Made by a program: the position numbers and the translations under genes
The notes under the pieces: generated by a model
Seen by the model: only the letters and a program-made list of their open reading frames with translations
What the model was told of the DNA's origin: nothing
The model's database searches: none
Shown: positions 16,100-50,492 of the stretch, in pieces
How positions within the stretch are numbered: the stretch's first letter is position 1
How the letters are laid out: the number at the start of each line of letters is the position of its first letter
Origin: a virus
Taxonomy: Duplodnaviria > Heunggongvirae > Uroviricota > Caudoviricetes
Virus record (IMG/VR): IMGVR_UViG_2571042445_000002
Length of the DNA stretch: 64,000 nucleotides
Reading direction: 5' to 3' (one strand)

Positions 16100-17098
16100 A
16101 TGCAATCACTGAATACCGTTACGGATCGCTTCTCCCTGGTAGAGAAAATCCGCAAACACACACCTCAGAACAATCGCAATTACGTTATCCAGTCGGTACG
16201 AGACACATTCAACTCGCCAGAAACAAAAGAGCGTATCGCACTGGGTGAGATGTATGGTTATTACGGTCATGGTCGCCGGGCGATGCACTATAACAAAACG
16301 AAAAGCCTGGACTTGCCGGAAGTCTCTGTTGTGATGGTAGATGGGAAGCCTGTTGTATTGGAGAACGTGCCGTCAAACAGGACTATCGACATTTCAATTG
16401 ACGACAACGGCATTGTTACCCATACACAGGAAATACTGGATACGGACACCGGACGTATTGTTCAGGGTATGATTAATTCTGGCGCAGGTGGTTGGTCATG
16501 GGCTACATCTGGTCCAGATTACTCTGTATCCCTGGTAAAGTCTTTTCACGGTTTTGATTACGTAACTGTGCCTAACTATATCAGCCTCGACAAGAAAAGC
16601 CTGATGCTTGAATCAGCAGAAGAACGCGACGCGGCGATTCATGCGGCACTTATCGAACAAGGTTTTACCGATAATGCTGCTACGGATCTGGTTCACCACT
16701 TTTCAGCAATGAAGAGTCAGCAAGCCATATTCGAATCAGCACAACGTGAAGTTCTGGAGTCGGAACTGATACATCTTGAAGTGGAAAATATGCAGCTTCG
16801 CGACAAACTACGCGACCAGGCCGCGATGATGGAAAGCCAGGGGGAGAACGCGAAGAAATGCCGCCGTATTTTGCGTGATGCTATCCAGGAAATGCCTGTT
16901 TTTATCAGCGCAGAACAGCGCCGGGCGCTCTGCCGTATGCAGTCAGAGGATGATGCACGCATTGTCGCAGCGATGCTTGAATCCCTGGGGGCTAATGCCA
17001 CTTATGGTCTGCCAATATCAGCCAATAAACAACAAGAAATACCGGTGAAAGAGAACAAGACGGTGACTCCGCTGATCTTTGTGTCTAAGAGGATGTGA
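16100..17098 (+). CDS. head maturation protease/scaffold-like protein (putative)
   Basis: 332 aa, globular N-terminal part plus C-terminal coiled coil (Mu I-like architecture). Confidence 0.3.
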   Translation: MQSLNTVTDRFSLVEKIRKHTPQNNRNYVIQSVRDTFNSPETKERIALGEMYGYYGHGRRAMHYNKTKSLDLPEVSVVMVDGKPVVLENVPSNRTIDISIDDNGIVTHTQEILDTDTGRIVQGMINSGAGGWSWATSGPDYSVSLVKSFHGFDYVTVPNYISLDKKSLMLESAEERDAAIHAALIEQGFTDNAATDLVHHFSAMKSQQAIFESAQREVLESELIHLEVENMQLRDKLRDQAAMMESQGENAKKCRRILRDAIQEMPVFISAEQRRALCRMQSEDDARIVAAMLESLGANATYGLPISANKQQEIPVKENKTVTPLIFVSKRM

Positions 17099-17111
17099 GC
17101 TAAAAGCTAGC

Positions 17112-17128
17112 TTAATTTTCTAACACAG
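17112..17128. promoter_or_regulatory. operator-like motif TTAATTTTCTAACA
   Basis: member of the dispersed 14-bp motif family. Confidence 0.5.
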
Positions 17129-17215
17129 TGTGTTTTTATACACTGTTGATCCGACGGCACGTGATCGAGTAGGATCGCGGTCACTGCTCCGGTAGCGACT
17201 GCCAAAAAAAGCAAA

Positions 17216-32515: not shown

Positions 32516-32591
32516 TGATGGTGTAGCTCAGTGGTAGAGCAGTTGGCTGTTAACCAACTGGTCGGTGGTTCGAATCCACTCACCATCGCCA
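32516..32591 (+). tRNA. tRNA-Asn (anticodon GTT)
   Basis: 76 nt; acceptor gatggtg/caccatc, anticodon loop CTGTTAA, T-loop TTCGAAT, 3' CCA encoded. Confidence 0.85.
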
Positions 32592-32593
32592 AT

Positions 32594-32669
32594 GCCGGTT
32601 TAGCTCAGTTGGTAGAGCGCCTGCCTTGTAAGCAGGATGTCAGCGGTTCGAGTCCGTTAACCGGCACCA
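32594..32669 (+). tRNA. tRNA-Thr (anticodon TGT)
   Basis: 76 nt, 2 nt after tRNA-Asn; anticodon loop CTTGTAA; T-loop TTCGAGT; CCA encoded. Confidence 0.85.
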
Positions 32670-32671
32670 AC

Positions 32672-32760
32672 ACAACAGGTAAGGGTATTTTGCGACGTCG
32701 GAGATCGCCGAGCTTGGCAGAGGGTTCGAATCCCTACGAAGTACCCTTACCGTTGTGATG
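32672..32760 (+). ncRNA. tRNA-like hairpin element or pseudo-tRNA
   Basis: 15-bp stem acaacaggtaagggta/tacccttaccgttgt enclosing a T-arm-like GGTTCGAATCC; no full cloverleaf. Confidence 0.3.
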
Positions 32761-32857
32761 AATGCACAGGCTGATGTGCCGCAACTACAGTAGTGCGCGC
32801 TTTGCGGGGCTTGCTACAACCCTGTGTCGGAGTTCAGCACCGACCATCACAATCACT

Positions 32858-32944
32858 GGAGAGTAGGGAGCATGGTGCTCAAGCGGTCTTGAAAACCGTC
32901 CCATTGCGCAAGCGATGATGGTTCGATTCCATTACTCTCCGCCA
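32858..32944 (+). tRNA. tRNA-Ser-like (anticodon TGA), long variable arm, atypical D-arm
   Basis: acceptor ggagagt/actctcc, anticodon loop CTTGAAA, long variable arm, T-loop TTCGATT, CCA encoded. Confidence 0.5.
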
Positions 32945-33200
32945 GCGCAACGTTAAGAGTATTTGGCTAATTAAGCGAATGCCGGAAGCAGAACCGGATC
33001 ACCAAATGCTCTTACCATTGCGGTGAATGCGGCTAAGCGCACGCGGAACAGTTAAAACAGTAAAGGTGGTCTTTTTACTGGCGTAACGAGAATCCATAAG
33101 TGATCCGGCGTTAATTGTTAACTGGTTAACGTCACCGGGAGGCACCCGGCACCGCAACCTAACAGCAATGGCGTTTTGTCTTAAAAGGTGGCTGCAAGTG

Positions 33201-33329
33201 ATGGATTTTTGGGCGTTTGCCGATAAAAACCCGGAGTGGACATTATTGTTTCTGCTGGTGGTTGCATACGGGGTAGAGCAAGCGGCAAAAGCCTTACGCG
33301 GTTCTGGCAAAAAGCGTAAGCGTAATTAA
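33201..33329 (+). CDS. small membrane peptide (42 aa)
   Basis: ATG ORF MDFWAFADKNPEWTLLFLLVVAYGVEQAAKALRGSGKKRKRN, one TM helix plus basic tail; below the ORF-track size cutoff. Confidence 0.25.
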   Translation: MDFWAFADKNPEWTLLFLLVVAYGVEQAAKALRGSGKKRKRN

Positions 33330-33338
33330 CAGTAATCT

Positions 33339-33414
33339 GGCCCTTTAGCTCAGTGGTTAGAGCGGGCGACTCATAATCGCACGGTCACCGGTTCAAGTCC
33401 GGTAGGGGCCACCA
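33339..33414 (+). tRNA. tRNA-Ile2 (anticodon CAT, lysidine type)
   Basis: 76 nt, nearly identical over D-arm and anticodon arm to E. coli tRNA-Ile2 as I recall it; CCA encoded. Confidence 0.8.
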
Positions 33415-33866: not shown

Positions 33867-34442
33867 ATGTTAACGGCGAACGATAACGCGTATTCAGAAG
33901 ATGATCTCGTTTTGAGTGACTTTATAGGGCGACGAGAATGCTGGACGCAAAAGCGCGAGGAGCTTTATGCAGCGTTAGTTCGTAAAGGCGTCAACATCGA
34001 AACCGCACAGAACGGTGATATGACAGTGGTAAGTGTTGGACTGCACGGCGTAAGTGTGTCAGCAATCAATCATGAGCCGTACATTGCGTTATCCGAGTCG
34101 ATGGTAAGGTTAGTTAAGTTCCTGAAGTACACAGAAGCGAATAACGTGATCATCGCCAAAAAGAACATCCCGTTCTCATCGGCCTTTTACTGGATGATGA
34201 AGGGGCTTGATGCCCGGCGAACATCATGGCCTAAAGGGAGCTATATATCGATGCTCCGTGGCAGTGTTGGTAGCAAAGAAAAGCTCGTCGAATTCCTGCC
34301 GGAAGAGGCATTCGATATTGTTGAAGGTTGTGATGTGATGGTTATGCCTCGCCTGGTAATGATGAATGGGGATTTACAGGCGCAGACAGACTGGTTTGCA
34401 ACTGGAGTTGATATTATCGCTACTGACTGGGAGGTTTTTTGA
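33867..34442 (+). CDS. DUF2829 (Tad2-like) domain protein with N-terminal extension
   Basis: 191 aa; C-terminal region has the W-x3-G-x3-RR-x2-W-x-G signature (FYWMMKGLDARRTSWPKG) and the DIIATDWEVF end. Confidence 0.4.
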   Translation: MLTANDNAYSEDDLVLSDFIGRRECWTQKREELYAALVRKGVNIETAQNGDMTVVSVGLHGVSVSAINHEPYIALSESMVRLVKFLKYTEANNVIIAKKNIPFSSAFYWMMKGLDARRTSWPKGSYISMLRGSVGSKEKLVEFLPEEAFDIVEGCDVMVMPRLVMMNGDLQAQTDWFATGVDIIATDWEVF

Positions 34443-34929: not shown

Positions 34930-35322
34930 ATGGAGCAAATCAGTAGCGCCGAAATAGCGGATATCATGATCAGGGCTAACTGCTATCTGACGGTCACCGA
35001 AATCACCAGCCGTGCAAAAGCACAATATCCTCACCTTCATGTGTCGCGCGTAAACGTAAATAACATCATACGTTTTTTTGTTCGTTCCAGTCGTGCCATT
35101 TGCGAAATAGACGACCGCGTATACCCCCGGAAATATTGGTTACATGGCCTGAATGGATACCAGTTCAAGGTGCGCGGGCGCACTCCTGAATTCGGTCGGC
35201 TGTTGGTGAAAAACACCAACCGAAAGATAGAAGCTCAATTACGAAAGGAGCAGCGTCAGTTGGTGGCGATGACTAACCAGCTATGGAACGCCGCTGTGAA
35301 AAAACGTGAGGCTTCCCTATGA
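34930..35322 (+). CDS. Lpa-like late promoter activator (putative)
   Basis: 130 aa basic protein upstream of pacA-pacB (P1 order lpa-pacA-pacB-c1) and preceded by an operator pair. Confidence 0.4.
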   Translation: MEQISSAEIADIMIRANCYLTVTEITSRAKAQYPHLHVSRVNVNNIIRFFVRSSRAICEIDDRVYPRKYWLHGLNGYQFKVRGRTPEFGRLLVKNTNRKIEAQLRKEQRQLVAMTNQLWNAAVKKREASL

Positions 35323-36683
35323 CGTTAATTAACTGGGAAGCGCATCGAGCTAAGTTCCTGGAGTTAAGAGAAGAAACCGGGATCACCATAAAAGAATATT
35401 GCGAGCAGCATGACCTCAGCTTTAACACCGCCAGAAAGCATCTCAATATGAAAAAAAATGAGGTTAAGGCGAAAGCTAAGGCTACCGGGAAAAGTACAAA
35501 ACAGCGCGCAAAAAGCAGTGCCACCGGCTCAAAAAAAGAGCAAAAAAAGGCTAATAAAAGCACAGAATTTACAAAAACTGACAAATCGTTGGCTGGTGGA
35601 CGGTTCCGCGCCATGCCGCAAAAACAAAATGCGGATCACAAAGAAAAGCCAAGTAATAACAACAAGATACACAAGGATGTGAAGGGATCATTTTGTGATG
35701 AAATGGGAGAAATGATCCCTAAAAGCAGCGATAAAGCCCAACGAAACAAGGGATCATTGCAAATGATCCCTGATTCATCAGCTCAAAGCACCACTTTGCC
35801 TGCCACCAACGTCGCCCGTGAGATGATGAAGAACGGCGCGACTGAACATTTACGACTTGCGATACAGATGGCGCAGGAACGAGCAATTCAGTATCAGGCT
35901 ATCGTTGACCAGGAAGCGGAGCGACTACAGGAAGAGATTGACGCTCTCGGTGATACACAGCCAGAGGGGATGCACCCAGGGCAGCGTCTTCTCGGACTGA
36001 TCAGCGATGCGGCCTACTACATGAATGACTTTATCACCAGGCTGGCAGCCATCTATCAGAACGAGCAGAAGCTACGCCAGGGGGATGAAAAACTTGCGCA
36101 GGGCGCGCGTCAGCAGGCATTCAGGGAGGCTGAGGCCAGAGAAAAACTGGCGATTGCCCGCCTACAAGCCGAGCAGCGTGGCAAGGAGATTGAGTATCGC
36201 ATTGGCGCTGACGCACGCGCCGCCAGGGTTATCGCCGCCGCTATACGTATGCGTGAGCGCGAGGAGCTGGATGATATAGGTGTTGCTGAATATATCGAGC
36301 GGCAGGGCGTCAGTGTCCCGGCTATCCTGGCGGCACGAGCGGCAAAAGCGATCTCACTTCTGGAGCCTCCGGTTTCTGACGTTAACGATGTTGATGATGA
36401 GCAACTGGATAAAGAGGCGAAGCAGTTTGCCGAGCAACAAGCTGGACTCCCACAATGGCTTGCACAACGCCGGGCTGAAGTAGCGAAAATCGTTGATAGG
36501 CTTGGGATGGGGGATTACGACCGGAACGGAGAACGTAAAGCCGGTGAATTTGAGGCCAATGATGAAGACCTGAATATAGACCCTTCCGCCACGGCTGATA
36601 TCTACGGTGATTATGACGCGGGGGATACCGGTTTTGATGCTGTAGATGACGAGATTGCGATAGACCAGCCGGAGGATGACTAA
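35319..36683 (+). CDS. pacA: PacA-like terminase small subunit
   Basis: 454 aa; basic Lys-rich N-terminal region, acidic C-terminus; contains the GATC-rich candidate pac site; precedes the terminase ATPase. Confidence 0.5.
   Translation: MTLINWEAHRAKFLELREETGITIKEYCEQHDLSFNTARKHLNMKKNEVKAKAKATGKSTKQRAKSSATGSKKEQKKANKSTEFTKTDKSLAGGRFRAMPQKQNADHKEKPSNNNKIHKDVKGSFCDEMGEMIPKSSDKAQRNKGSLQMIPDSSAQSTTLPATNVAREMMKNGATEHLRLAIQMAQERAIQYQAIVDQEAERLQEEIDALGDTQPEGMHPGQRLLGLISDAAYYMNDFITRLAAIYQNEQKLRQGDEKLAQGARQQAFREAEAREKLAIARLQAEQRGKEIEYRIGADARAARVIAAAIRMREREELDDIGVAEYIERQGVSVPAILAARAAKAISLLEPPVSDVNDVDDEQLDKEAKQFAEQQAGLPQWLAQRRAEVAKIVDRLGMGDYDRNGERKAGEFEANDEDLNIDPSATADIYGDYDAGDTGFDAVDDEIAIDQPEDD
35680..35772. 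promoter_or_regulatory. candidate pac packaging site (four AGGGATCATT elements)
   Basis: GATC at 35686, 35714, 35752, 35765 as two inverted pairs within pacA; P1 pac is a cluster of Dam-site hexamers inside pacA. Confidence 0.4.
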
Positions 36684-38191
36684 TGGCTGGTGGTCGTAAG
36701 ATTAAGTGCGTCACCAGTGATCCACGTTGGCGCGATATGGTTATCAGGTATCGATACAACTTTACCCAGGCGGTTGTCGATATTTTTGGGATGTTCCCCT
36801 CCCACCAGCAGCAGCAGATCATTCAGTCAGTGCAGGAGACGGGGAGCAGGACGACCGTTACGTCCGGACACGGAACGGGTAAGTCGTCCCTTACCGCGAT
36901 GTTGCTACTAATTTTCATGATCCTGTTCCCCGACGCCCGCGTCATTATTGTTGCGAACAAAATAGGCCAGGTAAAAACAGGCGTATTCAAATACGTGAAA
37001 CAGTTTTGGGCGAATGCTGTTAAGCGTCACGGCTGGTTACAGACCTATTTTGTCCTGTCTGACACCATGTTTTATGAGCGTTCCCGTAAAGGGATATGGG
37101 AAGTGCTCTGTAAAGGTTATCGACTCGGTAACGAAGAGGCACTGGCGGGGGAGCACGCTGAGCATTTACTGCTAATCCTTGATGAAGCATCGGGCATATC
37201 CGATAAGGCGATTAACGTCATGACGGGGGCGTTAACGCAGAAAGATAACCGTATGCTCATGCTTTCCCAGCCTACGCGTCCAAGCGGTTACTTTTATGAA
37301 TCTCACCATTCAAGGGCAAAGGCAGAAGGCAATCCGGAAGGTGTCTGGACGGCAATAGTCCTTAACTCTGAAGAATCACCATTCGTTGAACCGAGCTTTA
37401 TTCGTGAGAAATTGCTGGAGTACGGCGGCAGGGATTCGCTGGAGTACATGGTTAAGGTGCTGGGCCAGTTCCCGCGTGCAATTAACGGGTATTTGCTTGG
37501 TCGTGATGAGTGCGACCGCGCCGCACGGCGTAAAGTGTTGCTGGAGAAAGATTGGGGCTGGGTAGCGACCGCTGACGTCGGTAATGGTCGCGACAAATCG
37601 GTGCTCAATATATGCAAAGTATCCGGTTATCGTGAGAAACGACGCGTTGTGAACTTTAAGATACTGGAGATGCCAGGCACTATGGACCCGTTGGCTTTTG
37701 CCGACTTTATCTATAACGAATGCACTCCTGATAAATACCCGAACATCACCATTGCTGTGGATGCTGATGGCTTTGGTTCAGATACGTGTGCGCAGCTTGT
37801 CCGCCGTGGTGCTAATCCCGTTCGCATCCGTTGGGGTAAGCCTATGTTTGCGCTGAGAGACAGAGAACGCTTTGTCAATCAGCGTGCTTACGCCAATATT
37901 ATGGCAGGGGATGCCATTAAATCCGGGCGTATGCGTATCGATAGTGACCCCAAAACCGCAGATCAGGCATCAAAAATCCCGTATATGCTTAACGAAGAAG
38001 GGAAGGTAGCGATGATGCGCAAGGAGCACATGCGGCAGAAGTTAAACATCAAGTCACCGGACAGATGGGATACCTACTGCTTCACTATGCTGGTGGATTA
38101 CGTGCCTGCTAATGAAGACATTGGCGCAGAACTCGCAACATTCCGCGATCAGGTGTTGGCAGAAGTGGATATTCCTGATATTGACATTTAA
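36683..38191 (+). CDS. pacB: PacB-like terminase large subunit
   Basis: 502 aa; Walker A-like SGHGTGKSSL; ATGA overlap with pacA. Confidence 0.55.
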   Translation: MAGGRKIKCVTSDPRWRDMVIRYRYNFTQAVVDIFGMFPSHQQQQIIQSVQETGSRTTVTSGHGTGKSSLTAMLLLIFMILFPDARVIIVANKIGQVKTGVFKYVKQFWANAVKRHGWLQTYFVLSDTMFYERSRKGIWEVLCKGYRLGNEEALAGEHAEHLLLILDEASGISDKAINVMTGALTQKDNRMLMLSQPTRPSGYFYESHHSRAKAEGNPEGVWTAIVLNSEESPFVEPSFIREKLLEYGGRDSLEYMVKVLGQFPRAINGYLLGRDECDRAARRKVLLEKDWGWVATADVGNGRDKSVLNICKVSGYREKRRVVNFKILEMPGTMDPLAFADFIYNECTPDKYPNITIAVDADGFGSDTCAQLVRRGANPVRIRWGKPMFALRDRERFVNQRAYANIMAGDAIKSGRMRIDSDPKTADQASKIPYMLNEEGKVAMMRKEHMRQKLNIKSPDRWDTYCFTMLVDYVPANEDIGAELATFRDQVLAEVDIPDIDI

Positions 38192-39462: not shown

Positions 39463-39496
39463 CTAACTTTAAATAATTGGCATTATTTAAAGTTAG
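39463..39496. other. lox-like recombination site (13-8-13)
   Basis: CTAACTTTAAATA-ATTGGCAT-TATTTAAAGTTAG; perfect 13-bp inverted arms, asymmetric 8-bp spacer, 150 bp upstream of the Cre-like gene. Confidence 0.65.
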
Positions 39497-39647: not shown

Positions 39648-40676
39648 ATGGGTGAACTAGTTATCTCCGGCGGTTCTGGTGGTTTTCTGCGCGATATTGG
39701 CACCGAATACCAGGAAGCTGCAAAAAACTTTATGCAGTTCATGAACGACCAGGGAGCTTATGCCCCAAATACACTTCGTGATCTCCGTCTGGTGTTTCAT
39801 TCCTGGGCGCGGTGGTGTAACTCGCGCCAGCGCCCCTGGTTCCCGATTACGCCGGAAATGGCCCGCGAGTATCTTCTCCAGTTGCATGAGGCCGATCTGG
39901 CTTCGACCACCATTGATAAGCACTATGCCATGCTTAACATGCTGCTTTCGCAATGTGGCCTCCCGCCGCTGTCGGACGATAAAAGTGTGTCTCTGGCCAT
40001 GCGGCGCATCCGGCGCGAAGCGGCAACGGAAAAAGGCGAGCGAACAGGCCAGGCTATACCGTTGCGGTGGGATGATCTGAAATTGCTCGACGTGTTGCTG
40101 TCCCGTTCCGAGCGGCTGGTGGACCTGCGCAATCGGGCGTTTCTCTTCGTGGCATACAATACCCTGATGCGTATGTCAGAAATCTCGCGCATCCGCGTCG
40201 GAGATCTGGACCAAACAGGTGACACTGTAACGCTGCATATTTCACACACGAAGACCATCACGACCGCCGCCGGACTTGATAAGGTGCTTTCTCGTTACAC
40301 TACCGCCGTACTGAACGACTGGCTGGAGGTGTCCGGACTTCGAGAACATCCGGACGCGGTGCTATTCCCGCCAATACACCGCAGTAATAAGGCCAGAATC
40401 ACGACAACGCCCCTTACTGCACCTGCAATGGAGAAAATATTCAGCGATGCCTGGGGGTTGCTGAACAAACGAGATGCCACGCCGAACAAGGGAAGATACC
40501 GGACGTGGACAGGCCATAGTGCGCGTGTTGGTGCGGCAATTGATATGGCTGAGAAACAGGTGTCAATGGTCGAGATCATGCAGGAAGGCACATGGAAAAA
40601 GCCCGAAACACTTATGCGATATTTGCGCCGTAGCGGGGCATCCGTTGGTGCAAATAGTCGCCTGATGGATTCATAA
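39648..40676 (+). CDS. cre: Cre-family tyrosine recombinase
   Basis: 342 aa; aligns along its length to P1 Cre as I recall it, including NTLMRMSEISRIRVGDL, WTGHSARVGAAIDMA, GTW and MRYLR (catalytic Arg, His-x-x-Arg, Trp, Tyr). Confidence 0.8.
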   Translation: MGELVISGGSGGFLRDIGTEYQEAAKNFMQFMNDQGAYAPNTLRDLRLVFHSWARWCNSRQRPWFPITPEMAREYLLQLHEADLASTTIDKHYAMLNMLLSQCGLPPLSDDKSVSLAMRRIRREAATEKGERTGQAIPLRWDDLKLLDVLLSRSERLVDLRNRAFLFVAYNTLMRMSEISRIRVGDLDQTGDTVTLHISHTKTITTAAGLDKVLSRYTTAVLNDWLEVSGLREHPDAVLFPPIHRSNKARITTTPLTAPAMEKIFSDAWGLLNKRDATPNKGRYRTWTGHSARVGAAIDMAEKQVSMVEIMQEGTWKKPETLMRYLRRSGASVGANSRLMDS

Positions 40677-44408: not shown

Positions 44409-45971
44409 ATGAAAATGACAAGTATTCAACAACGTGCAGAGCTTCATCGCCAGATCTGGCAAATTGCTAACGATGTCAGGGGGTCAGTCGATGGATGGGA
44501 TTTTAAGCAATACGTTCTGGGCGCACTTTTCTACCGTTTTATCAGCGAAAATTTTTCCAGCTATATTGAAGCCGGTGATGACAGTATCTGTTATGCGAAA
44601 CTGGATGACAGCGTAATTACTGATGACATTAAAGACGATGCCATCAAAACTAAAGGCTACTTCATCTACCCCAGTCAGCTTTTCTGCAACGTAGCTGCGA
44701 AAGCAAATACCAATGACAGACTGAATGCGGATTTAAACAGCATCTTCGTTGCTATCGAAAGTTCTGCTTACGGTTACCCTTCAGAAGCTGACATCAAAGG
44801 TTTGTTTGCTGATTTCGATACTACCAGTAACCGCCTGGGTAACACCGTTAAAGATAAAAATGCCCGCCTGGCTGCGGTTCTGAAAGGGGTTGAAGGGCTA
44901 AAACTTGGTGACTTCCACGAACATCAGATTGACCTGTTCGGTGACGCCTATGAGTTCCTGATTTCTAACTATGCGGCGAATGCTGGTAAGTCAGGCGGCG
45001 AGTTCTTTACACCGCAGCACGTCTCTAAGCTGATTGCACAACTGGCTATGCACGGGCAGACCCACGTTAACAAAATCTACGACCCGGCAGCAGGTTCCGG
45101 TTCGCTGTTGTTGCAAGCTAAAAAACAGTTTGATGACCATATCATCGAAGAAGGTTTTTTTGGTCAGGAAATCAACCATACGACCTATAACCTGGCGCGT
45201 ATGAACATGTTTTTGCACAACATCAACTACGACAAGTTTGATATCAAGCTGGGCAATACGCTGACTGAACCGCACTTCAGAGATGAAAAACCGTTTGATG
45301 CCATCGTTTCTAACCCGCCGTATTCGGTGAAATGGATTGGCAGCGATGACCCGACGCTGATTAACGATGAACGTTTTGCCCCGGCTGGCGTTCTGGCCCC
45401 CAAATCCAAAGCTGACTTTGCGTTTGTATTACATGCACTGAACTATCTTTCTGCCAAAGGTCGTGCTGCGATTGTCTGCTTCCCAGGCATTTTTTACCGT
45501 GGCGGCGCGGAGCAGAAAATCCGTCAGTATCTGGTTGATAATAACTATGTCGAAACCGTGATTTCACTGGCACCGAACCTGTTCTTTGGCACCACCATTG
45601 CCGTAAACATTCTGGTGTTGTCTAAACATAAAACAGATACAAAAGTTCAGTTTATTGATGCCAGCGAACTGTTCAAAAAAGAGACTAACAACAATATCCT
45701 GACCGATGCCCATATCGAACAGATTATGCAGGTATTTGCCAGCAAGGAAGATGTTGCTCATCTGGCGAAATCTGTTGCGTTTGAGACTGTTGTCGCGAAT
45801 GACTATAACCTGTCGGTGAGCAGCTATGTGGAAGCGAAAGATAATCGCGAAATTATCGATATCGCTGAGCTGAATGCGGAACTGAAAACCACGGTCAGCA
45901 AAATCGACCAGTTGCGCAAAGATATTGATGCGATTGTGGCTGAAATTGAAGGCTGCGAGGTGCAGAAATGA
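44409..45971 (+). CDS. hsdM: Type I restriction-modification methyltransferase subunit
   Basis: 520 aa; SAM motif [10 protein letters not shown] and catalytic SNPPYSVKW. Confidence 0.85.
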
Positions 45972-47254
45972 GCGAGTTGAGTTATCTGGAAAAATTGCTG
46001 GATGGGGTTGAGGTTAAGTGGTTGCCATTGGGGAACGTCGCTGAAATTTATGGTGGCCTAACAGGAAAGAGTAAATCTGATTTTGAGAACGGTAATGCCA
46101 GATATGTTTCATACAAAAAAATATTTGGTTATTTAGATGTGAATGATTACCCTACTGATTATGTATATATTAGTGAGGGAGAAAGACAAAATAAAGTAAG
46201 ATATGGGGATGTTTTATTTACTGGCTCATCTGAAATTGCTGATGAAGCAGGCATGTCCTCCGCCGTTACAGTACACTTCGATGAATCAGTGTATTTAAAC
46301 AGCTTTTCTTTTGGTATCAGATTCAGTAACAGCATAAAAATCAAACCGGAGTTCGCAAAATACCTTTTTCGAACCCATTTCATGCGCTCTGAAATAGCAA
46401 AAACAGCTAGTGGTGTAACACGCTTTAATATTTCAAAATCAAGATTTAAAAAAATACTGGTTCCTATCATTTGTCCTAATGATCCAGAAAAATCCCTTGC
46501 CATCCAGTCTGAAATCGTTCGGATTCTGGATAAATTTACTGAGCTTACAGCTGAGCTTACAGCTGAGCTTACAGCTGAGCTTACCATGCGTAAAAAACAG
46601 TACAACTACTATCTTGACCAGTCGCTAAGTTTTAAAGAGGGTGAGGTCGAGTTGAAAACGTTGGGAGAGATGGGGACACTTATAAGAGGCAAACGCTTTG
46701 TGAAATCCGACATAATTCCCAAGGGAGTACCGTGTATTCACTACGGTGAAATGTATACCCATTACCGCATCTGGGCGGATAAAGCAAAATCGTATATCTC
46801 TGTTGAATTAGCGTCCAAGTTAAGAAAAGCCTCATGCGGAGATGTTGTTTTTGTCTCTGCGGGTGAAACAATTGCAGATATTGGTCGTGGAACAGCCTGG
46901 TTAGGCGATGAAGATGTTGTTATTCATGACGCATGTTTTTTCTATAAAAGTTCATTGAACCCCAAGTATGTGGCCTACTTCTCAAGAACAAATTTCTTCC
47001 ACGATCAGATTAAAAAATCGATCTCTTCGGGGAAAATTTCTGCCATCAATGCCAAAGGCTTTGAAAAAGTGATTATTCCAGTTCCTTCACCAGAAGAACA
47101 AGCACGCATCGTTGCTTTCTTGGACAAATTCGACACATTGACAAGCTCCATCACCGAAGGCTTACCCCGTGAAATAGAACTACGCCAGAAGCAGTACGAG
47201 TACTATCGTGATTTACTGTTCAGTTTCCCAAAACCTGAAACTGTCAGTAATTAA
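45968..47254 (+). CDS. hsdS: Type I restriction-modification specificity subunit
   Basis: 428 aa; two AT-rich target-recognition domains around a central conserved region with TAEL repeats; ATGA overlap with hsdM. Confidence 0.8.
46541..46585 (+). repeat. 12-bp tandem repeat (gagcttacagct, 3.75 copies) encoding (TAEL)n in HsdS
   Basis: direct read of the sequence; protein [22 protein letters not shown]. Confidence 0.9.
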
Positions 47255-47375
47255 TTGACCATTGCTACCGACCGGGCCACCTTAACACCCGGTCAGTATA
47301 TAGACTATTTTTTACACGCTGGAAGTCACCATTAACGCCCTTCCGGCCCTTGCCAGACGGCACAAAGGATGCGCT

Positions 47376-50300
47376 ATGACTCATCAAACACACACCATTG
47401 CTGAATCCAATAACTTTATCGTTCTTGATAAATACATCAAAGCTGAGCAAACAGGCGACAGCTATCAGAGCGAATCGGACCTGGAACGTGAACTGATTCA
47501 GGACCTGCAAAATCAGGGCTATGAATTTATATCCGTAAAATCACAGTCAGCGATGCTGGCCAACGTTCGGGAACAGCTTCAGAGCCTCAATGGTGTGATG
47601 TTTAATGACAGAGAGTGGCGGCGTTTCACGGAGCAGTATCTGGACAACCCGAGCGATGGCATTCTGGATAAGACCCGTAAAATCCATATCGACTATATTT
47701 GCGACTTTATTTTTGATGACGGGCGTCTTGAAAATATCTATCTGATAGATAAAAAGAATCTCATGCGCAATAAGGTGCAGATTATCCAGCAGTTTGAACA
47801 GACGGGTTCTCATGCTAACCGTTATGACGTCACGATCCTGGTTAATGGTTTACCGCTGGTGCAAATCGAACTAAAAAAACGCGGGGTGGCGATTCGTGAG
47901 GCTTTCAACCAGATACATCGTTACAGTAAAGAGAGTTTTAACAGCGAAAATTCCCTGTTTAAGTATCTGCAACTGTTTGTCATTTCTAACGGCACCGATA
48001 CCCGTTACTTTGCCAACACCACAAAGCGCGATAAAAACAGTTTTGACTTCACAATGAACTGGGCGAAATCAGACAACACGCTGATTAAAGACCTCAAAGA
48101 CTTTACCGCTACCTTTTTCCAGAAACATACTCTGCTGAATGTTCTGGTGAACTACAGCGTTTTTGACAGTAGTCAGACGCTACTGGTGATGCGACCGTAC
48201 CAGATTGCAGCTACCGAACGAATTTTATGGAAAATCAACAGTTCCTATAAAGCGAAAAACTGGTCCACTCCCGAAAGTGGTGGCTTTATCTGGCACACCA
48301 CCGGTTCCGGTAAAACACTGACCAGCTTTAAAGCCGCGCGTCTGGCAACAGAACTGGACTTTATTGATAAAGTCTTCTTCGTGGTCGACAGAAAAGACCT
48401 CGATTACCAGACGATGAAGGAATATCAGCGTTTTTCGCCAGACAGCGTCAACGGCTCGGAAAATACCGCAGGACTTAAACGAAATCTGGATAAGGACGAT
48501 AACAAAATTATCGTCACCACTATTCAGAAACTTAATAACCTGATGAAAGCAGAAAGCGACCTGCCTGTATACAATCAGCAAGTGGTGTTTATATTTGATG
48601 AATGTCACCGCAGCCAGTTTGGAGAAGCACAGAAAAACCTGAAGAAGAAATTCAAACGCTATTATCAGTTTGGTTTTACCGGCACACCTATTTTCCCGGA
48701 AAACGCCTTAGGCTCAGAAACAACCGCCAGCGTATTTGGCCGTGAATTGCATTCATATGTTATTACCGATGCGATTCGTGACGAAAAAGTGCTCAAATTC
48801 AAGGTGGACTACAACGATGTGCGGCCACAGTTTAAGTCTTTAGAGACAGAAACTGACGAGAAAAAACTGAGTGCGGCTGAAAATCAGCAGGCGTTTCTTC
48901 ATCCCATGCGTATTCAGGAAATCACGCAATATATCCTGAACAACTTCCGCCAGAAAACCCACCGTACTTTCCCTGGTTCCAAAGGTTTTAATGCCATGCT
49001 GGCAGTAAGCAGCGTGGATGCTGCAAAAGCCTATTATGCGACGTTTAAACGGTTACAAGAGGAAGCCGCTAATAAATCGGCTACCTATAAACCGCTGCGT
49101 ATTGCGACAATCTTCTCCTTTGCCGCCAATGAAGAACAAAATGCCATTGGTGAAATTTCCGATGAAACTTTTGATACCAGCGCAATGGACAGCAGTGCTA
49201 AAGAGTTTCTGGACGCTGCAATTCGTGAATATAACAGCCATTTTAAAACTAACTTTAGCACCGACAGTAACGGTTTTCAGAACTACTATCGTGATTTAGC
49301 CCAGCGGGTTAAAAATCAGGATATCGATCTGCTAATTGTCGTGGGGATGTTCTTAACCGGCTTCGATGCTCCAACATTGAACACGCTATTCGTCGATAAA
49401 AACTTACGTTATCACGGCCTGATGCAGGCATTTTCCCGCACTAACCGCATTTATGACGCCACTAAAACCTTCGGTAATATCGTCACTTTCCGGGATCTGG
49501 AACGCTCAACTATTGATGCCATAACGCTGTTTGGTGACAAAAACACCAAAAATGTGGTGTTAGAAAAGAGTTATACAGAGTATATGGAAGGCTTTACTGA
49601 TGCTGCTACAGGTGAAGCTAAACGCGGCTTCATGACAGTAGTTTCAGAACTGGAACAACGGTTCCCTGACCCTACCAGTATTGAAAGTGAAAAAGAGAAG
49701 AAAGACTTCGTTAAACTGTTTGGCGAATACCTGCGTGCCGAGAACATCCTGCAAAACTATGATGAATTTGCCACGCTAAAAGCCCTGCAACAAATCGATC
49801 TTAGCGATCCTGTTGCGGTAGAAAAATTCAAAGCAGAACATTATGTGGATGATGAAAAGTTCGCTGAATTGCAAACAATTCGTCTCCCTGCTGATCGCAA
49901 GATTCAGGATTATCGTTCTGCCTATAACGATATTCGCGACTGGCAGCGCCGTGAGAAAGAAGCTGAGAAAAAAGAGAAATCAACCACTGACTGGGATGAC
50001 GTAGTTTTTGAGGTCGATTTGCTGAAGTCTCAGGAAATAAACCTGGATTATATCCTTGGACTGATTTTCGAACACAACAGACAAAATAAAGGCAAGGGCG
50101 AAATGATCGAAGAGGTCAAACGCTTAATTCGTTCAAGTCTAGGGAACCGTGCTAAAGAGGGCCTGGTGGTCGATTTTATTCAGCAAACGAACCTGGATGA
50201 TTTACCGGACAAAGCCAGCATCATTGACGCATTCTTTACGTTTGCTCAACGCGAACAGAAACGTGAAGCAGAAGCATTGATAAAAGAAGAAAATCTCAAT

Positions 50301-50492
50301 GAAGAGGCGGCGAAACGCTATATTCGCACATCTTTAAAACGCGAATACGCCACCGAAAATGGTACAGGATTAAATGATACATTACCAAAACTTAGTCCGT
50401 TAAATCCGCAATATAAAACGAAAAAACAGACGGTTTTCCAGAAAATCGTCTCGTTTATTGAGAAGTTTAAAGGCGTAGGCGGAAAAATATAG
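47376..50492 (+). CDS. hsdR: Type I restriction-modification endonuclease subunit
   Basis: 1038 aa; Walker [15 protein letters not shown]-box [12 protein letters not shown]2 helicase layout. Confidence 0.85.

Follow-up and report, generated by a model that had tools for sequence, protein, structure and literature searches.

Where does a D6-like phage-plasmid start to package its DNA? The question is raised by a 64,000-nucleotide stretch of viral DNA (IMG/VR record IMGVR_UViG_2571042445_000002; the window, below), a D6-like phage-plasmid of the P1 supergroup and a plasmid-prophage of Escherichia coli, in which an earlier note had picked out a GATC-rich repeat cluster inside the gene pacA as a candidate packaging initiation site (pac). 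Our analysis supports that proposal in silico. The five GATC elements of the cluster, here called E0 to E4 (35632-35771, about 140 bp), probably constitute the pac of this phage-plasmid, or at least its recognition arm. The case is built on the homology and synteny of pacA, on the retention of the five GATCs as DNA words and on the presence of a GATC array in the same gene segment in 21 out of 21 PacA lineages, one of which is that of phage P1, where the array of this segment is the experimentally defined pac.

The core of the cluster is an exact 10-mer, AGGGATCATT, that occurs at 35683-35692 and 35749-35758 on the plus strand and at 35711-35720 and 35762-35771 on the minus strand. The repeat units extend to 11-mers, two of AAGGGATCATT and two of AAATGATCCCT, and these form two inverted pairs with spacers of 16 nt and 3 nt. 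The rest of the window holds no further exact copy of the 10-mer, and the four copies with one mismatch found elsewhere are at chance level (8 in total against 4.0 +/- 2.1 expected). Simulating the window 300 times under a first-order Markov model never gave a 10-mer more than two nonoverlapping copies within 100 bp, compared to four in the real sequence. Both the exact search and the simulations thereby confirm what the earlier note had described, a word occurring four times within 90 bp as two inverted pairs inside a PacA-like coding sequence. The window is not enriched in GATC overall (220 observed against 248 expected), and its densest GATC cluster is the one studied here, with four sites in 90 bp and five in 140 bp (Poisson P of 1.4e-4 for at least five in 140 bp).

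In pacA coordinates, the four repeats occupy nt 365-453, or nt 314-453 with the fifth GATC included, and all five elements are GGATCA or TGATCC, extended to GGGATCATT. E1 (AGGGATCATTT, 35683..35693, plus strand, pacA nt 365-375) codes Gly-Ser-Phe, and its inverted copy E2 (AAATGATCCCT on the plus strand, 35710..35720, minus orientation) codes Met-Ile-Pro. E3 (AGGGATCATT, 35749..35758, plus strand, pacA nt 431-440) codes Gly-Ser-Leu, and its inverted copy E4 (AAATGATCCCT on the plus strand, 35761..35771, minus orientation) again codes Met-Ile-Pro; each of these four is an exact repeat. E0 (CGGATCA, 35632..35638, plus strand, pacA nt 314-320) codes Asp-His, has its GATC at 35634 and sits 52 bp upstream of E1, outside the interval marked in the earlier note, and it belongs to the same conserved set as the four repeats.

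The pacA genes of D6-like elements fall into three deep clades (that of the window; D6/RL465/L031; and Escherichia fergusonii/Shigella dysenteriae) that share 66-67% identity over pacA nt 1-600. The GATCs at nt 316, 368, 396, 434 and 447 are invariant among the clade representatives, and 23 of the 25 distinct D6-like sequences have all five. In the linker-coding segment (nt 130-560), invariant tetramer positions make up only 14.8%, so that five out of five has a probability of p^5 = 7e-5, and GATC is the sole tetramer that is kept at every occurrence in the linker across the three clades. The elements supply four of the six longest runs without variation in the linker: AAATGATCCC in E2, at 10 nt the longest of all in this variable segment, AATGATCCC in E4 (9 nt), CGGATCA in E0 (7 nt) and GATCATT in E1 (7 nt). 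In E3 the GATC is invariant and the flanks vary (GGGATCTTC in D6 and AGAGATCATC in the E. fergusonii clade). The four identical 10-mers are specific to the clade of the window, and the other clades are slightly degenerate, with a consensus of RRGATCWT / AATGATCCC.

The gene that carries the cluster (pacA, 35319..36683, plus strand) encodes a small terminase or pacase subunit of 454 amino acids that matches the terminase family phrog_1711 (E=2e-167) and, more weakly, small-terminase PHROGs, with no hit in Pfam. The protein is 74% identical to PacA of D6 and 23-24% identical to PacA of P1, and a tblastn search of a phage collection with PacA did not reach P1 at E<=1e-5. The order of genes and sites, lpa, pacA, pacB, a c1-like repressor gene on the minus strand, a rox-type site and a tyrosine recombinase gene, is syntenic with both D6 and P1.

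The P1 site is 161 bp long, lies inside pacA and has seven TGATCA/G hexamers with Dam sites; the view reported with this description is that pac is bound when hemimethylated and cleaved when fully methylated, with IHF/HU bending the DNA (PMC10028697). For packaging, P1 depends on Dam methylation of pac, and in Dam- hosts it cannot do without its own dmt (PMC12707154). The P1 record (NC_005856) places an IHF site at pacA nt 256-268 and the cleavage points at nt ~276-285, and in its sequence TGATCA occurs four times at nt 194-234 and TGATCA/G three times at nt 324-353. These sources agree with the account of P1 pac given in the earlier note, a cluster of Dam-methylatable hexamers within pacA whose methylation controls cleavage. 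Like P1 pac, the cluster lies inside the homologous gene, which is next to pacB, in the segment that codes for the variable linker after the N-terminal domain; it is of similar size and consists of several short elements, each with a Dam GATC and a GATCA core. Its neighbors also correspond, with lpa upstream and pacB, c1 and lox or rox ~4 kb downstream (pac to lox is ~4.0 kb in P1, and the cluster is 3.7 kb from the rox-type site in the same layout), and the D6-like lineage encodes a Dam-family methylase of its own, as P1 does with Dmt. The statement that the position is analogous to that of P1 pac stands at the level of the linker-coding segment and not at finer scale, since the cluster is centered at pacA nt ~408, ~125 nt deeper into the gene than the P1 cut.

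A broader comparison was made with 92 pacA genes gathered from plasmids, genomes and viral contigs and reduced to the 21 lineages. Across these, GATC density is 19.4 per kb in pacA nt 140-480 and 3.8 per kb in the remainder of the gene. All of the non-D6 lineages (P1-like, Pantoea, Citrobacter, Xenorhabdus, Rosenbergiella, Enterobacter and others) are bipartite, with an upstream arm of three to seven TGATCA at a period of ~12 bp, coded as Asp-His repeats, and a downstream arm of two to five more elements 80-200 bp further on; for the Pantoea, Citrobacter, Xenorhabdus, Rosenbergiella and Enterobacter arrays, we found no experimental characterization in the literature. The lineage of Enterobacter hormaechei, whose PacA shares 54% amino acid identity with that of the window, has three upstream and five downstream elements. 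It shares the words GGGATCATT and AATGATCCCC with the window, some of them at homologous positions and some in different frames, and its downstream elements align with E1, E2 and E4. The D6-like group differs from the other lineages of the P1 supergroup in having the downstream cluster and E0 only, and it looks derived, with the downstream arm retained, the upstream array lost and the single E0 lying 52 bp upstream. The type of word goes together with the putative recognition helix of PacA: NTARKHL, found in the window and in the E. hormaechei lineage, accompanies GGATCA/TGATCC, and NTARR[Y/E]L accompanies TGATCA/G. The D6-type cluster is very probably a compact variant of P1 pac and not a new kind of element, with an altered word, an inverted-pair layout and one arm lost.

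Location of pac within the small-terminase gene is also seen in headful phages in general, such as P22, SPP1 and Sf6, where the recognition site lies inside the gene of the protein that recognizes it and headful packaging proceeds downstream. To our knowledge, however, Dam sites are not the building blocks of pac in these phages, methylation is not known to gate it, and their small terminases have no detectable homology to PacA, which has no Pfam hit and only weak matches to small-terminase PHROGs.

Several observations weigh against E0 to E4 being the pac of this phage-plasmid. The word in the window is GGATCA/TGATCC, while the P1 hexamer is TGATCA/G, and only the GATCA core is shared. Four of the five elements (P1 has seven) are arranged as inverted pairs within 89 bp, whereas the four-plus-three arms of P1 flank a cleavage region of ~90 bp; in the window, pacA nt 140-310 is free of GATC, and the largest gap between elements is the 52 bp from E0 to E1. 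The upstream 12-bp-periodic array of P1 and the other lineages is absent. A site with one arm may be insufficient, and other parts of it may be located elsewhere. Unlike in P1, the IHF match is weak: the region has no consensus IHF site, only a speculative box, TAACAACAAGATA, between E0 and E1 (35657..35669, plus strand), with two mismatches to WATCAANNNNTTR. This box is found at pacA nt 339-351 in all D6-like clades and resembles the annotated P1 site AAACAAAGAGTTA, at a level of similarity that occurs ~10 times per kb by chance. A pac feature is absent from both GenBank records of D6, and no paper that maps a D6-type pac was found in the literature searched, although an earlier mention of a D6 pac candidate in print is possible. 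The conservation test has three deep clades as its whole basis, and since the NTARKHL lineages form one clade, the match between helix and word amounts to one event and not to a statistical correlation. Finally, in each of two viral contigs of the D6 clade, a T-to-C change has turned one GATC into GACC, E1 (nt 368) in L049 and E2 (nt 396) in L054, so either single elements are dispensable or those copies are impaired.

Among the other explanations, a Dam- or SeqA-sensitive site, or a binding site for another protein, might serve a regulatory role outside packaging, for example, in the expression of pacA and pacB or in a replication-linked process tied to methylation. Clustered GATCs are typical of methylation-sensitive regulatory regions and of regions bound by SeqA, and a second, smaller GATC cluster lies upstream of a repL-like gene. 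The arrangement of lpa and pacA points the same way. In both the window and D6, the stop of lpa overlaps the start of pacA by 4 nt (35319-35322 in the window), while P1 has instead an 85-nt gap that holds the late promoter LPpac. Therefore, in D6-like phages, pacA is possibly cotranscribed with lpa or coupled to it in translation, which may shift the timing of pacase synthesis, and early transcription of pacA is possible and may call for extra control. Against this, the cluster has no promoter-like signal, matches to promoters and terminators in the region do not exceed chance, and the palindrome of the second pair scores as terminator-like on the antisense strand only. Moreover, this segment is the one that holds the mapped pac of P1, the GATC arrays track pacA through every lineage and the word covaries with the PacA helix, and we consider a purely regulatory site unlikely. 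The second-densest GATC cluster of the window is the one near the repL-like gene (17074-17176), with four sites, three of them within 30 bp. It lies directly upstream of this gene for lytic replication, beside an inverted repeat, ACACAGTGTGTTTTTATACACTGT, and may act as a methylation-sensitive control region for the lytic replicon.

The cluster could also be a remnant or accessory arm, equivalent to the right-hand hexamers of P1, with the functional D6-type site located elsewhere or in need of additional sequences. The bipartite structure of every non-D6 lineage, with an upstream array that the D6-like group is missing, is in line with this, as are the alignment of E1, E2 and E4 with the downstream arm of E. 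hormaechei, the lack of a strong IHF site and a further conserved GGGATCAC at pacA nt 60-67. However, the exact 10-mer is unique in the 64 kb, the window has no comparable second GATC cluster and the strict conservation of five GATCs in three clades argues for present function, so that we give this explanation little credence. The word GGGATCAC (35378-35385) codes Gly-Ile-Thr of the N-terminal domain and is kept in all D6-like clades, while other lineages use other codons for these residues. It could be a distal sixth element, but the conserved GATC at nt 63 is uninformative because it lies within a strongly constrained sequence coding for a putative helix-turn-helix (HTH).

If selection instead acted on the protein, through the Gly-Ser and Met-Ile-Pro peptides that each occur twice in the linker, the DNA repeats and their GATCs would be by-products. 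The residues encoded by the elements (Ser and Met-Ile-Pro) are indeed the best conserved of the linker in the D6-like clades, and Met-Ile-Pro recurs in the E. hormaechei lineage; a synonymous-codon test confined to the motif codons gave 5/7, 6/7 and 5/6 identical against ~55% elsewhere in the gene, on too few codons for significance. Yet the codon phase of GATC differs between the elements: it is 1 in E0, where the word gives Asp-His, 2 in E1 and E3, where it gives Gly/Arg-Ser, and 3 in E2 and E4, where it gives Met-Ile-Pro. The same DNA word, in three phases and on both strands, thus encodes unrelated peptides, to which L005 adds Asp-Pro and Gly-Ile. The first codon of E1 and E3 switches between Gly and Arg (GGA and AGA; in E1, D6 has AGA for the GGA of the window), which alters the protein and keeps the GA of GATC, and the Ile codon in the elements is always ATC. 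The common denominator is GATC and no single peptide, and in other PacA lineages the arrays are coded by different peptides, such as Asp-His repeats. In an AlphaFold 2 (AF2) model from the single sequence, PacA has an N-terminal domain of three helices, is disordered at residues 59-162 (predicted local distance difference test score of <50) and continues in long helices, and the segment encoded by the cluster belongs to a polar linker with 74% polar residues and is predicted to be disordered. The three codon phases and the Gly/Arg swaps that keep GATC therefore point to a constraint on DNA and not on protein, and we favor selection on the DNA word over selection on the peptide, for which we see very little probability. 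Searches of solved structures gave no sequence hit for PacA and, with the single-sequence AF2 model, nothing significant in Foldseek (best E of ~4); the weak Foldseek hits are mostly HTH domains, and therefore, the label HTH for the PacA N terminus is only a weak inference.

That selection acted on the inverted repeats as hairpins in RNA or DNA, which might, for example, tune how the pacA-pacB mRNA is translated or how stable it is, is extremely improbable. The mRNA segment does fold into two hairpins (-35.5 kcal/mol, z = -3.3), and RNAalifold draws a nested structure. In six sequences from the three clades, however, 14 of the 21 hairpin pairs are invariant, 6 depart through one-sided, unpaired changes only, and the single double change is no better than in shuffles (97-248 of 500). 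The covariation term amounts to only -0.39 kcal/mol, and E0 has no partner. One-sided changes with no covariation mean that the elements are conserved singly and not as pairs, and a structured RNA element was rejected as a candidate since the pairing is not maintained by compensatory changes.

With E0 to E4 as the preferred candidate for pac, we infer the working of the site by homology with P1. The three-helix N-terminal domain of PacA would bind the GATCA words within its own gene, and PacA, the nuclease/ATPase PacB and probably a host bending protein (IHF/HU) would assemble on the site. The DNA would be cut in or beside the cluster, and by analogy to P1, the gap between E0 and E1 and that between E2 and E3 are candidate positions. 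Headful packaging would then proceed toward pacB, c1 and rox, and in that direction, the terminal redundancy would include rox, so that the recombinase could recircularize the DNA after injection. Cleavage is probably gated by adenine methylation, as in P1, because every element carries a Dam site; the gating methylase would be host Dam or the phage's own Dam-family enzyme, with fully methylated sites being cut and newly replicated, hemimethylated sites being spared.

A further step, which we offer tentatively and regard as possible rather than probable, is that the D6-type pac is a functionally distinct, one-armed signal with a defined orientation, with PacA of the NTARKHL type reading the GGGATCATT inverted pairs and ignoring the TGATCA arrays of the P1 type. 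If this is true, D6-like and P1-like phage-plasmids in one cell would package their DNA orthogonally, and phagemids would gain a second Dam-gated packaging system, independent of the first and made up of the 140-bp segment and pacAB.

E. coli, Salmonella and Shigella commonly carry D6-like phage-plasmids, which, like P1, are able to transduce host and resistance genes. A known packaging signal would predict which DNA is packaged, would permit the design of phagemids and transducing vectors for the D6-like group and would let the discrimination between terminase sites of the P1 and D6 types be examined. The basic conclusion is one that a P1 specialist would expect; the altered word, the inverted pairs and the lost arm are what make it concrete. 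In addition, the map of 21 PacA lineages is a natural experiment on the coevolution of a small terminase and a methylation-gated site within one gene, where a switch in the type of word accompanies the replacement of two residues in the putative recognition helix and where the D6-like group has lost one arm.

The methylase of the lineage was found on a sister plasmid (NZ_LR890273) that is 99.8% identical to the window across the pac region and encodes a D12-class, Dam-family N6-adenine methylase (PF02086, E=2e-53). Its open reading frame (ORF) lies outside the window (NZ_LR890273 71561-73277; L101 21561-23277) and has the FKWVGGK and DPPY motifs; it is flagged as a partial pseudogene by PGAP, and the ORF of 344 amino acids is nonetheless open. 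It is preceded by an ORF of 268 amino acids with PC and ENPV motifs, C5 methylase-like and with no Pfam hit, and the two together resemble the two-domain Dmt of P1. A tblastn search found no Dam gene in the window, whose sole methylase is the type I HsdM.

Over the 3.3 kb that surround the site, the window shares 79% identity with phage D6 and 98-99.8% identity with seven plasmids of ~90 kb from E. coli and Escherichia marmotae. This variant of the region is carried by 17 of 5,426 complete E. coli genomes, plasmid borne in every case, and matches to D6-like phage-plasmids were found in 130 plasmid records from E. coli, Salmonella and Shigella. Upstream of pacA, lpa (34930..35322, plus strand) encodes the late promoter activator (Pfam BPP1_LPA, E=2.5e-50). 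Downstream, pacB (36683..38191, plus strand) encodes the large terminase of 502 amino acids (phrog_5902, E=7e-147; terminase large subunit phrog_2, E=4e-41), and its counterpart in D6 is annotated as pacB. The rox-type recombination site (39463..39496, no strand assigned), which has perfect 15-nt inverted arms, CTAACTTTAAATAAT, and a 4-nt spacer, lies downstream of the cluster along the direction of pacA transcription, and the rox of D6 is annotated at the syntenic position, between c1 and dre. A gene for a tyrosine recombinase similar to Dre and Cre (39648-40676) follows the rox-type site.

Some minor observations concern the same operon and its surroundings. In one D6-clade element (IMG assembly 2537562191), the end of contig L064 and the start of contig L053 both lie inside pacA, at nt 320-329, and overlap by 10 nt (ATGAAAATAA) after E0 and before E1, a single coincidence that is not evidence. 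The methylase HsdM is part of a complete type IC (EcoR124-like) restriction-modification module at 44409-50492, composed of hsdM (44409-45971; Pfam N6_Mtase, 4e-121), hsdS (45968-47254; Pfam Methylase_S, 9e-27) and hsdR (47376-50492; Pfam EcoR124_C, 3e-71). The hsd genes are unannotated in the otherwise near-identical NZ_LR890273, and the module therefore looks like variable cargo. Inside hsdS, a 12-bp tandem repeat, CTGAGCTTACAG, is present in four copies that code for 16 residues (46539-46586). The copy number of the TAEL repeat in HsdS proteins of the EcoR124 family sets the spacer length of the recognition sequence, and the hsdS repeat could therefore switch specificity. Two genes upstream of lpa, an ORF at 33867-34442 has a domain similar to the Thoeris antidefense protein Tad2 (Pfam PF11195, 4e-10), and its homologues are named "MW1434 family type I TA system toxin" in some RefSeq records. 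Further upstream of the packaging operon, at 32517-33414, the window carries four tRNA genes (Asn-GTT, Thr-TGT, Ser-TGA and Met-CAT), and the tRNA set of the sister plasmid is annotated partly differently, as Arg, Tyr, Thr, Ser and Ile.

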